DNA of 45,251 nt, taken from the sequence record NC_007637.1; one strand, written 5' to 3'. Position 1 is the stretch's first letter. Each line of letters begins with the position of its first letter. This document shows, piece after piece, positions 2,031-40,477 of this stretch. A program made the translations under genes and the position numbers. The stretch is from Escherichia phage K1E. The notes beneath the pieces are model-generated. The model saw only the letters and a list, made by a program, of their open reading frames with translations. It did no database searches and was not told where the DNA came from.

Positions 2031-2195
2031 ATGACTAACGCACAACGTAAACGCTATGATGCATTGCAAGAGAAACTTGCTGTTGCTTATGCCGCTTGGC
2101 AAGCTAACACAGACAAGAGCAAACACGATAAACTTTATAGTAAAGTGGTTGCAATTAATGCTAAAATAGATAAACTTGTGAATAGTATCTTATAA
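2031..2195 (+). CDS. Hypothetical early protein (54 aa)
   Basis: ATG 2031 with AAAGGTGAACT upstream; stop TAA 2193..2195; found by manual translation. Confidence 0.45.
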   Translation: MTNAQRKRYDALQEKLAVAYAAWQANTDKSKHDKLYSKVVAINAKIDKLVNSIL

Positions 2196-2206
2196 GATAG
2201 TTGCTG

Positions 2207-2272
2207 GCACTAGCCAGCCTATCAAGGCACAAGCCACGCTCTTTTAACAATATGGGTAGTCGCTTCTTAGTC
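2207..2272 (+). promoter_or_regulatory. Early-region repeated element, copy 4 (core GCTCTTTTAACAAT, 2237..2250)
   Basis: Hairpin gctggc-acta-gccagc, arm cctatcaaggcac, the core, then an imperfect partner arm gtctggatagg. Confidence 0.35.
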
Positions 2273-2345
2273 TGGATAGGTTAAACCTAGGGTATTCTTT
2301 TGAGTGCCCTATAATGTAACCTAACTAACTAATGAGGATTAAATC

Positions 2346-2672
2346 ATGGAACGCAATGCTAACGCTTACTACAATCTTCTGGCTGCAACTGTTGAAGCAT
2401 TCAACGAGCGCATTCAGTACGATGAGATCCGCGAAGGTGATGATTACTCTGATGCACTACATGAGGTTGTAGACAGCAATGTTCCAGTTTATTACAGCGA
2501 AATCTTTACTGTGATGGCTGCTGATGGCATTGATATTGAATTTGAGGATGCAGGTTTGATTCCTGATACGAAGGATGTAACCAAGATTCTACAAGCTCGC
2601 ATCTATGAGTCTCTTTATAATGATGTACCAAATGATAGTGATGTAGTTTGGTATGAAGACGAGGAAGAATAA
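2346..2672 (+). CDS. Ocr-like acidic protein (candidate DNA-mimic anti-restriction protein, 108 aa)
   Basis: Very acidic protein. The stretch IQYDEIREGDDYSDALHEVVDSNVPVYYSEIFTVMAADGIDIEFEDAGLIPDTKDVTKILQARIYESL closely parallels T7 gp0.3 (Ocr) as I remember it; needs alignment to confirm. Confidence 0.6.
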   Translation: MERNANAYYNLLAATVEAFNERIQYDEIREGDDYSDALHEVVDSNVPVYYSEIFTVMAADGIDIEFEDAGLIPDTKDVTKILQARIYESLYNDVPNDSDVVWYEDEEE

Positions 2673-37107: not shown

Positions 37108-37390
37108 ACATGCAGCTACAGAAGATGAGGTTGGCATCCTGCATGGTGCTATTACCAAAATCTTTAATAAGAAAGCACAGGCAATACTGGACACTATAGA
37201 AGAAGACCCAGATGCAGCACTGCATTTAGTCTCTGGTAAAGACATTGGAGCTATGTGTAAGTGGGTTCTTGATAATGGTATTACCGCTACACCTGCTGCA
37301 CAGCAGGAGGAGTCCAAGCTATCTAAGCGCCTCAAGGCTATCCGAGAGGCATCAAGTGGCAAGATTATTCAATTCACTAAGGAGGATTGA
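37091..37390 (+). CDS. Putative terminase small subunit (99 aa from GTG start)
   Basis: Track ORF starts at TTG 37046 inside the holin gene; proposed start is GTG 37091 with GGAGG 7 nt upstream; position matches T7 gene 18. Confidence 0.45.
   Translation: MSVHNKHAATEDEVGILHGAITKIFNKKAQAILDTIEEDPDAALHLVSGKDIGAMCKWVLDNGITATPAAQQEESKLSKRLKAIREASSGKIIQFTKED
37182..37204 (+). promoter_or_regulatory. Weak SP6-type promoter-like sequence inside coding sequence (+1 G at 37199)
   Basis: CAATACTGGACACTATAGAAGAA; perfect core with mismatches at -17 to -15. Confidence 0.4.
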
Positions 37391-38556
37391 TGGCTAAGGC
37401 AAGAGAATCACAAGCGGAGGCTCTTGCCAGATGGGAGATGCTACAGGAGTTACAGCAGACCTTTCCTTACACAGCGGAAGGTTTGCTTCTCTTTGCAGAC
37501 ACAGTTATTCATAACTTAATTGCAGGCAACCCTCATCTGATTCGTATGCAGGCTGATATCTTGAAGTTCCTATTCTACGGACACAAGTATCGCCTCATCG
37601 AAGCGCCTCGTGGTATCGCTAAGACAACACTATCAGCAATCTATACAGTATTCCGTATCATTCATGAACCGCATAAGCGTATCATGGTTGTATCCCAAAA
37701 CGCCAAGCGAGCAGAGGAAATCGCAGGTTGGGTAGTTAAAATCTTCCGTGGCCTAGACTTTCTTGAGTTTATGCTACCGGACATCTACGCAGGGGACCGT
37801 GCCTCAGTTAAGGCATTTGAGATTCATTACACCCTACGTGGCAGTGACAAGTCGCCTTCTGTGTCTTGTTACTCAATCGAAGCAGGTATGCAGGGTGCGC
37901 GTGCAGATATCATCCTAGCAGATGACGTTGAGTCAATGCAGAATGCTCGTACAGCGGCAGGACGTGCCTTGCTTGAGGAACTGACCAAGGAGTTTGAATC
38001 TATTAACCAGTTTGGTGATATTATCTACCTTGGTACTCCTCAGAACGTAAACTCTATCTACAATAACCTACCTGCTCGTGGTTACTCTGTTCGTATCTGG
38101 ACTGCACGTTATCCCTCAGTGGAGCAGGAGCAATGCTATGGTGACTTCCTTGCACCTATGATTGTGCAGGATATGAAGGACAACCCAGCACTTCGCTCAG
38201 GGTATGGCTTGGATGGCAATAGTGGTGCCCCTTGTGCACCTGAAATGTATGATGATGATGTGCTGATTGAGAAGGAAATCTCGCAGGGTGCGGCTAAGTT
38301 CCAGCTTCAGTTCATGCTTAACACTCGCATGATGGATGCTGACCGCTATCCGCTACGCCTGAACAACCTCATCTTCACTTCATTCGGTACAGAGGAAGTC
38401 CCTGTGATGCCTACGTGGAGCAATGATTCCATCAATATTATTGGCGATGCACCGAAGTATGGCAATAAGCCTACAGACTTCATGTATCGACCTGTGGCTC
38501 GCCCGTATGAATGGGGCGCTGTCACTCGTAAGATTATGTATATTGACCCTGCTGGT
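37390..38556 (+). CDS. Terminase large subunit, exon 1 (389 codons)
   Basis: ATG 37390 with AAGGAGG upstream; Walker A-like PRGIAKTT and Walker B ADIILADDVE; similarity to T7 gp19 stops at ...IDPAG, where an insertion begins. Confidence 0.85.
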
Positions 38557-39311
38557 AAACACCTCTGCCAGCGTAAAACCCTCTTAATTCGGTGGAACTC
38601 TCACTGAGACAATACCGAGCGAAGCCTGTTGCAATAACAGGAACGTGTAGAGACTAACTGTAAGGCCAAGCGGTCTGAAACAGAGGGAGGCGCAAGCCTA
38701 AGATATAGTCCGACCTACTAGGTGACTAGTAGAAGTTAAAGTAGCGAATTAACGTAACAATTGAAGGGAGTTAAATATGACAGAGCATAAAGTTTATCAT
38801 ATTCGTGTTGTTGGTGAAACTGATGTAATGCAAGGTTATATTGGTGTAACCTCCGATATTAAGAAGCGTATGAGAGAGCACAAGTGTGCAGGCCGTCTTT
38901 GTGATGGCCGCGAGTACGTTATCTTATTCACTGGTAGCAAAGAAGAGTGTTATGCACTAGAAGAGAAGCTACGCCCACATGACAACATGGGTTGGAATAA
39001 GGGTAAAGGTGGTTATCGCAAAGCAGGTAACATCGAGAAAGGTGAACGCATAAGTATTGCCACTGAAATCAAGAAAGGACAGCACTTGTCTGTTGCCACT
39101 GAGTTCAAGAAAGGCATGACACCTTACAACAAAGGTACTGGCAAAGATTACATATTCACTTCTCCAGATGGTGAAGAGTTTCTTGTAACTTGCATTACTG
39201 ACTTCTGTAAAGAGCACAACCTAACACCTCAGAATATGCGTAAGGTGGCACGTGGTTTACGTAAACACCACAAGGGTTGGCTCGCACGTCACGTTCAAAC
39301 CGGGAGGTAAG
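38557..39311 (+). mobile_element. Group I intron (candidate, self-splicing) carrying a homing endonuclease gene
   Basis: Conserved elements in canonical order: P AATTCGGTGGAA (38586..38597), Q AATACCGAGC (38611..38620), R GTAGAGACTAACTG (38647..38660), S AAGATATAGTCC (38700..38711). P1 pairing of exon GCTGGT (38551..38556) with GCCAGC (38567..38572). The 3' boundary is uncertain: G39311 or G39302. Confidence 0.75.
38777..39310 (+). CDS. GIY-YIG homing endonuclease (I-TevI-like, 177 aa) encoded within the intron
   Basis: AAGGGAG RBS; N-terminal KVYHIRVV...GYIGVTSDIKKRMREH (GIY-YIG with conserved Arg/Glu); central repeated GERISIATEIKKG / HLSVATEFKKG units; basic C-terminal DNA-binding-like region. 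Confidence 0.8.
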   Translation: MTEHKVYHIRVVGETDVMQGYIGVTSDIKKRMREHKCAGRLCDGREYVILFTGSKEECYALEEKLRPHDNMGWNKGKGGYRKAGNIEKGERISIATEIKKGQHLSVATEFKKGMTPYNKGTGKDYIFTSPDGEEFLVTCITDFCKEHNLTPQNMRKVARGLRKHHKGWLARHVQTGR

Positions 39312-40034
39312 AATGGGGATGAAACGGGTGTGGCTATCGTCTTCCTGCACGGCACATTCATTTATGTGTATCAGTGCTTTGGTGTGCCGGGAGGATACCG
39401 CGAATCGTCCCTGAATCGCATTGTGCAGGCCGCAAAGCAGGCAGGTGTTAAAGAGGTATTCATTGAAAAGAACTTTGGTCATGGCGCGTTTGAGGCCGTT
39501 ATAAAGCCATACTTTGAACGAGAGTGGCCTGTGACTCTGGAGGAAGATTACGCCACCGGACAGAAAGAGTTGCGTATCATTGAAACACTAGAGCCACTAA
39601 TGGCGGCCCACAGGCTCATCTTCAACGCAGAGATGGTCAAGTCTGATTTTGAGTCGGTACAGCACTATCCGCTTGAGCTACGCATGTCATACAGCCTTTT
39701 CAATCAAATGTCGAACATCACGATTGAGAAGAACAGCCTACGACACGATGACCGCTTAGACGCTCTGTATGGCGCTATACGGCAATTAACTTCTCAGATA
39801 GACTATGACGAGGTTACACGGATTAATCGCCTCAGAGCGCAGGAGATGCGCGATTACATCCATGCTATGAACACACCTCACCTCCGTAGGGCAATGCTCT
39901 ATGGAGATTATGGCACTGAGCGAAGAGTAACCAACACTTCCGTGGCTATGCAGCAAAGAGTATACGGTCAGAATTACAGGAGTAAATCGGCAAGCAGAAA
40001 TACACTTTCTGCAAGGATTTCAAGGACTTATTAA
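39312..40034 (+). CDS. Terminase large subunit, exon 2 (240 codons; may instead begin at 39303)
   Basis: NGDETGVAIVFLHG...EKNFGHGAFEAV...QKELRIIETLEPLMAAHRLIFN...HDDRLDAL parallels the C-terminal nuclease domain of T7 gp19. Confidence 0.85.
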   Translation, partial: NGDETGVAIVFLHGTFIYVYQCFGVPGGYRESSLNRIVQAAKQAGVKEVFIEKNFGHGAFEAVIKPYFEREWPVTLEEDYATGQKELRIIETLEPLMAAHRLIFNAEMVKSDFESVQHYPLELRMSYSLFNQMSNITIEKNSLRHDDRLDALYGAIRQLTSQIDYDEVTRINRLRAQEMRDYIHAMNTPHLRRAMLYGDYGTERRVTNTSVAMQQRVYGQNYRSKSASRNTLSARISRTY

Positions 40035-40055
40035 TTACCGGACACTATAGAAGGA
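40033..40055 (+). promoter_or_regulatory. SP6-type phage promoter (+1 G at 40050)
   Basis: AATTACCGGACACTATAGAAGGA; followed by an AT/purine-rich leader that shares AGGTTATATAGGTATT with the 6847..6986 region. Confidence 0.75.
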
Positions 40056-40198
40056 AGGCCCAGATAATAAGAGAAATAACAAGGATAATATAGGTTAACC
40101 TAGGTTATATAGGTATTCCTTAGTATGGGTGTACTCCTGTACACCCTATTCCTTACTTCCTTACTATACTTACATAATAGGAGAGAGAGAGAGAGAGA

Positions 40199-40477
40199 AT
40201 GTCTAATAGTTATAGTACACAACCTCTTACAGGTAAGTCTGCTCGTAAGCAGATACAACCTGTTAGTGAAGCCCTTATGCTTCCTGTAGTTTACGAGGAC
40301 ACTGTTGAGAAGAAAGGTGATGTTATTAATGATGCCACCAAATCAGGTAAGCAGAAAGGGGCCATGGTGTGTCTTGATACACATGATAACCTGGTTATTG
40401 CTATCGCAGTTGATGGCAAAGAAGATTCCAATTGGTTGACAGCTAATAAAGCGGTCACTACTATTACCCCAGCTTAA
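40199..40477 (+). CDS. Hypothetical protein (92 aa), paralog of the next gene
   Basis: ATG 40199 preceded by AGGA plus a (GA)9 run; shares SGKQKGAMV and overall layout with the 40490 product. Confidence 0.55.
   Translation: MSNSYSTQPLTGKSARKQIQPVSEALMLPVVYEDTVEKKGDVINDATKSGKQKGAMVCLDTHDNLVIAIAVDGKEDSNWLTANKAVTTITPA

Follow-up and report, generated by a model that had tools for sequence, protein, structure and literature searches.

A group I intron in the terminase gene of Escherichia phage K1E with an endonuclease reading frame that overruns the predicted 3' splice site

The Escherichia phage K1E genome sequence (NC_007637.1; 45,251 nucleotides, here called the window, with the terminase exons, the intron and its features on the plus strand) exhibits two open reading frames (ORFs), 37387..38607 and 39252..40034, corresponding to the two halves of a terminase large subunit. 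Between them lies a 177-amino acid homing-endonuclease ORF (38777..39310, ATG start, TAA stop), recognized from the ORF list, from profile and fold matches and from its relatives. We identified a 746-nucleotide (nt) group I intron of subgroup IA-like type (position 38557 to 39302) at the break of the terminase gene. The endonuclease ORF has no stop inside this intron; its last 8 nt (39303..39310) belong to the downstream terminase exon. The window is that of a K1E/K1-5/SP6-like podophage (Molineuxvirinae, Vectrevirus), coliphage region, and its closest record is vB_EcoP_C (98.7% identity, positions 38300 to 39600 compared). This intron has previously been noted only in passing. The announcement of the Lelliottia phage phD2B genome describes a split terminase with an intron bearing a homing-endonuclease gene, said also to occur in phage K1E (PMC4246154). 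It concerns the same element and gives no boundaries, structure, splice sites or relation between the ORF and the splice site.

The boundaries were obtained from relatives lacking the intron and agree with the P1/P10 pairing. Three intron-less records (K1E KY435490, vB_EcoP_K and SHAK7704) read ATTGACCCTGCTGGT/GGCGGTAAGAA at this locus, the slash here and below marking the insertion point. The junction in intron-less relatives, ...GCTGGT/GGYGGTAAG, sets both splice sites, the 5' one after U38556 and the 3' one after G39302. For the intron to have a U at -1, end in G and leave the product in frame, the insertion can only span positions 38557 to 39302, and the boundaries follow from these features together with the intron-less junction. 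Exon 1 of the terminase large-subunit gene covers 37390..38556 (ATG at 37390, the start called by the ORF finder being a TTG at 37387) and exon 2 covers 39303..40034, as given by the intron-less comparison and the length of the joined coding sequence (CDS). From ATG 37390 the joined CDS is 1899 nt long, which equals the intron-less K1E CDS. The protein sequence across the exon junction, IDPAG/GGKNGDETG, matches that of intron-less relatives, and the insertion lies in the conserved motif IDPAG/GGKNGDET. Splicing of 38557..39302 is predicted from these comparisons, and the ligated RNA junction would read ...GCUGGU/GGAGGUAAG. An earlier reading of the window, made from its letters alone (the sequence-only reading), had tentatively put the splice after G39302 and the last 8 nt of the ORF in exon 2. 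The first agrees with the intron-less relatives and with the P1/P10 pairing described below, the second with the 39302/39303 boundary and the 1899-nt joined CDS. The comparison with related phages carrying or lacking the insertion, which that reading had proposed, indeed fixes 38557..39302.

Group I intron (RF00028) is the single Rfam family matched across the whole window. The match covers 38525..38732 and model positions 1-253, with 63.6 bits (gathering score 50) and an E-value of 5.8e-14. The sample of introns at this site spans six lineages: the window group (Escherichia coli, Klebsiella and Salmonella phages), phage phD2B (77% DNA identity), Vibrio phage VEN, and three metagenomic lineages (L021-23, L024/L156 and L164). 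One metagenome scan added one lineage at the terminase site (L164), as well as related ribozymes in other genes. A hand-drawn structure comprising P1, P3-P9, P7.2, a P9.1-like hairpin, a start-codon hairpin and P10 was scored on an alignment of 12 sequences. Standard pairs occupy 99.4% of the cells, with changes on both sides at 24 pairs. The observed values were reached in none of 500 shuffles, and in slid controls only 33-45% is paired. Being invariant in the alignment, P4 and P7 provide no covariation information.

The catalytic core (38579..38732) is delimited by the Rfam match and the structure scoring. It comprises P3 (38579-84/38682-87), P4 (38589-94/38613-18), P5 (38599-602/38606-09), P6/P6a (38619-46), P7 (38652-56/38706-10), P7.2 (38663-76), P8 (38688-99) and the S element AAGATATAGTCC (38700-11). 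The P9 hairpin CUACUAG-GUGA-CUAGUAG (38715..38732) shows compensatory changes at six of its seven pairs. It is followed by a P9.1-like hairpin GUUAA-N9-UUAAC (38735..38753), which takes the compensatory form GUUGA/UCAAC in L024 and L164. P7.2 is present and covarying in all lineages, and a P7.1 hairpin is found only in VEN, L021, L024 and L164; additional P7.1/P7.2 helices between P7 and P3' are expected in subgroup IA2, the type of T4 td, nrdB and sunY. As the sequence-only reading had it, the ORF lies wholly downstream of the S element, and also of the Rfam match. That reading had further expected the 3' coding sequence of the ORF to provide P9; this is contradicted by the position of P9 upstream of the ORF. 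The frame of exon 1 runs 17 codons into the intron (38557..38607), through the guide, P3 and P4 and into P5, and ends at a TGA (38605..38607) at the junction between the loop and the 3' strand of P5. This stop is farther away than the "immediately downstream" stop called typical of phage introns. A related ribozyme with the same core motifs was found at a second terminase site in the locus L158 (minus strand, about 2190..2450). Its upstream exon ends in ...VVIEGNFG/, where the window has EKNFGHG (near 39470). A P1 of its own is formed by UUCGGU/GCCGAA, and no window-like endonuclease start is visible within 90 nt past its P9.

P1, P10 and the omega-G were identified at the splice sites. The exon strand of P1, GCUGGU (38551..38556), pairs with the internal guide sequence GCCAGC (38567..38572) in all 12 sequences, always with a U.G wobble at the 5' splice site. 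L024 and L164 exhibit a compensatory pair in P1, U-A being replaced by G-C with a synonymous change of the alanine codon from GCU to GCG. Directly 5' of the P1 guide, CCUCU (38562..38566) forms the five pairs of P10, invariant in 12/12, with the exon strand GGAGG (39303..39307). The latter is terminase GGA GG(T) and, together with the omega-G, (G)GG AGG in the ORF. The omega-G (39302) is the last base of the intron and the first base of codon Gly176 of the ORF, so that the ORF does supply the terminal G, as had been proposed from the sequence alone; all lineages have a G before GGAGG. The 3' splice site is probably set by this omega-G and the 5-bp P10. In all lineages the base before the omega-G is C or U, and the base at -3 is A. 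Since the former is always C or U, a single P9.0-type pair may form between it and G38712 in J7/9. Of the P9.0 that the 3' end of the ORF had been expected to contribute, perhaps this one pair stands and nothing more is established.

The pairing with the guide sequences is reflected in the codons of the host gene. All 34 intron-bearing loci have GGA as the first codon of exon 2, against none of the 31 intron-less loci (20 GGT, 11 GGC); the latter include L176-L203, L002, L003 and L010. Only an A at the third base of this codon completes P10. The last alanine codon of exon 1 is GCU where the guide has A (32 loci) and GCG where it has C (3 loci), and its third base varies in intron-less copies (T14, G9, A7, C1). 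A39305 is at once a synonymous site of the terminase, the first base of the last arginine codon of the endonuclease and the middle pair of P10. The difference in host synonymous sites between loci with and without the intron could reflect co-conversion or selection for P1/P10 pairing. The intron itself is 95-99% identical between the window and Klebsiella/Salmonella phages, against 72-78% for the flanking 250 nt of each exon. Likewise, nucleotide diversity among 16 close relatives is 0.0125-0.036 in the intron and 0.14-0.18 in the exons. The intron being far more alike than its flanking exons points to recent horizontal movement by homing. The same contrast provides indirect support for cleavage of the intron-less allele as the event that would drive homing.

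Database annotations suggest another reading of this locus. The annotation check covered the GenBank records behind L001, L004, L005, L007 and L008 and the window region 39252..39310, and none of these records annotates an intron or a joined CDS. In them the label "terminase large subunit" is given to two CDSs and a further one is called "homing endonuclease", with exon 2 starting arbitrarily, either at a GTG overlapping the endonuclease ORF or 20-64 nt inside exon 2. Taken at face value, such records would describe an unspliced, permanently fractured gene producing two terminase polypeptides and a free-standing endonuclease. We consider this highly improbable. A complete covarying group I ribozyme lies exactly at the break, and exon synonymous sites co-vary with the guide sequence. 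The break occurs in a conserved motif and the halves rejoin in frame at the exact intron-less length, while the annotated starts of "exon 2" are internal codons that differ between records.

The endonuclease ORF is a real gene under purifying selection. It is intact at the same place in the six lineages, with 53-99% protein identity, and variable sites among 16 distinct close relatives are distributed as 14/11/47 over codon positions 1/2/3. A Shine-Dalgarno sequence, GAAGGGAG, is readable at 38763..38770 and is AGGAG-like in all lineages. The ORF protein matches PHROG 2081 (E-value = 9e-11) and gave no match in an NCBIfam search. Residues invariant among the relatives include Y7, G20-Y21-x-G23, R31, H35, E62 and N74, an order which we take to be that expected of the GIY-YIG motif. 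In an AlphaFold2 model (mean predicted local distance difference test score, pLDDT, 69), residues 1-65 exhibit block means of 78-88 and a beta-beta-alpha-beta-alpha layout, and the linker 80-122 is disordered (pLDDT <50). The C-terminus matches the I-HmuI NUMOD-like family PF22083 (E-value = 5e-4), and a profile search of the PDB returned I-HmuI (1u3e; E-value = 0.0019) for residues 93-172. The same structure was the Foldseek match of the C-terminal module (root mean square deviation 1.3 Å, 38% identity, probability 1.0). The product is thus modeled as a GIY-YIG-like N-terminus joined by a flexible linker to a separate I-HmuI-like DNA-binding C-terminus, and endonuclease activity is predicted from these similarities. 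The motif FCKEHNLTPQNMRKVA (39195..39245, residues 140-158) resembles the transcription activator-like (TAL) effector repeat LCQAHGLTPQQVVAIA, with a summed E-value near 1e-8 against many TAL-effector structures in the PDB profile search. We dropped TAL-effector homology, the sum being made of many insignificant matches to this motif with a per-stretch E-value >300.

The 5' end of the ORF exhibits constraint at the nucleotide level. Structure scoring and fold prediction identify a weak hairpin, AAUAUGA/UCAUAUU (38774..38803), that holds the start codon. In phD2B the hairpin is AAUGUGA/UCACAUU, a GUG start being accompanied by the compensating synonymous histidine codon CAC. The hairpin is part of the predicted minimum-energy fold in all three lineages tested, at -6 to -8 kcal/mol, an energy that is not significant (z -0.3 to -1.2). 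Codons 3-9 (GAG CAT AAA GTT TAT CAT ATT) are nucleotide-invariant across the six lineages, which share just 53-77% protein identity, at six of seven positions versus 5 of 50 codons elsewhere (Fisher p = 8e-5), the lone exception being the CAC of phD2B. An imperfect direct repeat flanks the ORF, GGGAGTTAAATATG (38766..38779) and GGGAGGTAAGAATG (39302..39315), with 11 of 14 positions identical and both copies resembling a Shine-Dalgarno sequence followed by an ATG. The Shine-Dalgarno sequence of the phD2B ORF, GGAGGT, equals the first six bases of exon 2. This flanking repeat could be due to chance or could be a trace of the entry of the ORF into the intron. Such a trace has been proposed for the flanks of I-TevII in the T4 sunY (nrdD) intron (PMC3984707).

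None of the 14 phage promoter sites of the GACACTATAGAAG type in the window lies in the intron (38557..39302), the nearest being at 37190 and 40041; the P9 hairpin resembles the phage promoter just loosely. With no phage promoter in the intron, translation of the endonuclease has to rely on the long terminase transcript. Shortly past the promoter at 40041..40055, a (GA)9 tract (40181..40198) lies directly 5' of the ATG at 40199.

Compared with the 3' end of the ORF, constraint at the nucleotide level is clearer at its 5' end and on the synonymous host-exon sites in P1 and P10. In the window, the omega-G and GGAGG are read by the ORF as Gly-Arg, and the TAA stop (39308..39310) is built from the terminase codons GG-T AA-G, in the -1 frame of terminase GGT AAG. 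The same exon TAA, at +6..+8, is used by the window group, phD2B, VEN and L021. In L024 and L164, the ORF has its own TAG or TAA followed by UACUG and ends 5 nt before the splice site. In the intron-bearing contig L017 (1501..2043), the exon has GGC for GGT, a synonymous change by which the TAA is lost. Its ORF stops at a TGA at +15..+17, in terminase GGT GAC, and is three codons longer, ending ...GRQER. Protein conservation stops 10-20 nt short of the splice site, at the end of the element FCKxHNLTPQNxRKVAxGxRxxHKGWxA. Past A170 the tail varies in both length and sequence across the lineages (RHVQTGR, ILVSGR, IQIGR, EYII, EYLH). The final 40 columns of the alignment hold 17 invariant residues, of which 16 have codons that differ at synonymous sites, a pattern that speaks against an RNA structure superimposed on the 3' coding sequence. 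The bases shared by the ORF and RNA roles are the omega-G and GGAGG, plus at most one P9.0-type pair. Joint coding and structural constraint, which the sequence-only reading had anticipated here, therefore holds for these bases and is otherwise weak, hardly any being seen in the variable tail.

In its full form, that expectation would have the last codons of the ORF double as a structured 3'-terminal RNA domain under strong dual constraint, a P9.0/P9.2-type helix closing the ORF into a loop and delivering the splice site. The T4 sunY intron reportedly needs such a 3'-terminal domain to activate its remote splice junction (Michel et al., 1992), and several features of the window appear to point the same way. 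In the window group, phD2B and L021, UUGAA at 38767-71 is complementary to UUCAA at 39294-98. A second potential helix, shared by the window group and phD2B, joins GAACGUG (38640-46), on the 3' side of P6a/P6, to CACGUUC (39290-96). Moreover, 16 close relatives show no variation over the final 33 nt of the intron. However, when all helices of at least 4 bp between the ORF 3' end and the ribozyme or the pre-ORF spacer were compared in five lineages, neither of these two was conserved beyond the lineages just named, being absent from VEN, L024 and L164. About 70-105 chance helices of this size occur between the tail and the ribozyme in each lineage. A local hairpin in the last 96-180 nt was also rejected: the consensus fold reaches just -2 to -3 kcal/mol, and single-sequence z values of 0 to -3 correspond to no shared structure. 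The invariance of the last 11 codons in the close group is not significant either, other invariant runs of the ORF extending over 13-19 codons. Synonymous sites vary freely as far as codon 170, and P9 itself is upstream of the ORF. Neither helix listing nor consensus folding over the lineages revealed a helix conserved within the final 40-180 nt of the intron. The group I modelling that had been suggested thus supports the core, P1 and P10 and does not extend to the ORF end, and a structured 3'-terminal domain in this intron appears doubtful.

We consider it likely that the locus harbors a mobile self-splicing group I intron whose endonuclease ORF has come to overrun the 3' splice site by "core creep", the process described by Edgell, Chalamcharla and Belfort in 2011, whose model predicts variable and dispensable ORF ends (PMC3073962). 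The endonuclease gene, inserted after P9 and P9.1, would fill the 3' part of the intron, with no non-coding 3'-terminal RNA domain following it. Once a stop near the intron end was lost or displaced, the ORF would extend to the next in-frame stop, wherever this happened to be placed. Creep would in this way have carried the ORF over the splice site into exon 2, where a TAA in the terminase codons was met by chance. The overlapped codons would encode a dispensable C-terminal tail, and coding and RNA needs would barely conflict for this reason. The tail past A170 is probably dispensable, judging from its variation. The moving stop and the variable tail form the pattern predicted by the core-creep model.

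Several observations sit less comfortably with this explanation. The assignment of the N-terminus to the GIY-YIG type is marginal: Pfam PF01541 matches residues 20-42 only, with 21.1 bits (E-value = 4e-4), below the 22.6 cut-off. The Foldseek matches of the N-terminal domain to the GIY-YIG nucleases Slx1 (E-value 0.3-1, probability 0.3-0.7) and HIGLE are weak. The sequence CACGUUCAAACCG does not differ between the window group and phD2B, although the two are 77% identical overall, and a short or non-canonical tertiary contact may exist within the last 15 nt, six lineages being compared. Finally, all lineages end the ORF close to the splice site, between -5 and +17 nt, and the position of the ORF end could itself be under selection.

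Another reading takes the overlap as a selected regulatory device. With its stop in exon 2, a normally terminated endonuclease would be made only from the unspliced precursor. In E. coli, non-stop mRNAs are handled by trans-translation. The excised intron would carry a stop-less ORF and be such a non-stop mRNA, its product being tagged by transfer-messenger RNA (tmRNA) and degraded. A ribosome terminating at 39308-10 would cover the omega-G and P10, so that endonuclease translation and exon ligation would be mutually exclusive on each RNA molecule. The ORF reads through the splice site in four of the six lineages and ends within a ribosome footprint of it in all six. The lack of a GACACTATAGAAG-type promoter in the intron, with translation from the long terminase transcript, fits such a device, and the weak start-codon hairpin and invariant ORF 5' end hint at translational control. 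Ribosomes on core sequences are known to impair splicing of the td intron (PMC3073962). If true, the endonuclease gene would have handed its termination signal to the host exon, creating a built-in switch between homing-enzyme synthesis and exon ligation. Yet L024 and L164 retain a stop inside the intron, L017 tolerates an extension of three codons, the tail is not conserved and so gives no sign of selection for read-through itself, and the energy of the hairpin is unremarkable. The in-intron stops and the L017 extension argue for a coupling between ribosome and splicing that is merely tolerated. We regard a selected device as unlikely. As a speculation, in a full-length circular intron the frame of the ORF would close six codons on, at UAA 38574-76.

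The closest parallel to the creep proposed for K1E is I-TevI in the T4 td intron (PMC3073962). As in td, the K1E ORF would have grown beyond its first end point as far as the next stop in frame, the codons in the overlap give a variable C-terminal tail that is probably dispensable, and a hairpin holds the ribosome-binding or start region. The introns are also alike in subgroup, a phage type IA for td and IA-like in K1E, and the K1E enzyme may share the GIY-YIG type of I-TevI. In contrast, the td ORF occupies the P6 loop, and the overlap of its final 20 nt with P6a/P7 stays within the intron, whereas the K1E ORF starts after P9.1 and creeps over the omega-G and P10 into the exon, with a stop that belongs to the host gene. 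The td intron also has a T4 late promoter within it, unlike the K1E intron, where none was found. The T4 sunY (nrdD) intron with I-TevII is reported to possess a structured 3'-terminal domain downstream of its ORF (Shub et al., 1988; Michel et al., 1992). As in sunY, the ORF lies in the 3' periphery after P9 (P9 38715-32, P9.1 38735-53, ORF from 38777), and the core is made hundreds of nucleotides before a 3' splice site that would be chosen by P9.0/P10-type contacts. Unlike in sunY, no structured 3'-terminal domain was detected, and the ORF ends either 5 nt before or 8-17 nt past the splice site. Other phages also have group I introns in terminase and polymerase genes, among them Bastillevirinae (PMC11878797) and the T7-like phages PhiI and W31 with their DNA polymerase intron, where the PhiI ORF reportedly lies in P6a (Bonocora and Shub, 2004). 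Described as self-splicing and bearing endonuclease ORFs, these introns resemble the K1E one in interrupting essential phage genes at conserved catalytic motifs, and an overlap of ribozyme elements with nuclease genes has been noted among them. The Bastillevirinae and PhiI/W31 introns differ in having other insertion sites, mostly HNH endonucleases and ORFs in internal loops. A literature search for a group I intron ORF running into the downstream exon found nothing explicit.

The arrangement in K1E is unusual and readily explained; it is a natural case of an already described process rather than a new kind of element, and the current understanding of group I introns is unchanged. Most records show a broken terminase gene at this locus, and the exact boundaries and secondary structure given here for the intron should help the annotation of K1E/SP6-like therapeutic phages. 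The lineages, with the ORF stop before the splice site, in the exon or further into the exon, offer a natural series for testing core creep. They also illustrate how a mobile intron can impose synonymous codons on the gene that it occupies, here the GCU and GGA needed for P1 and P10.

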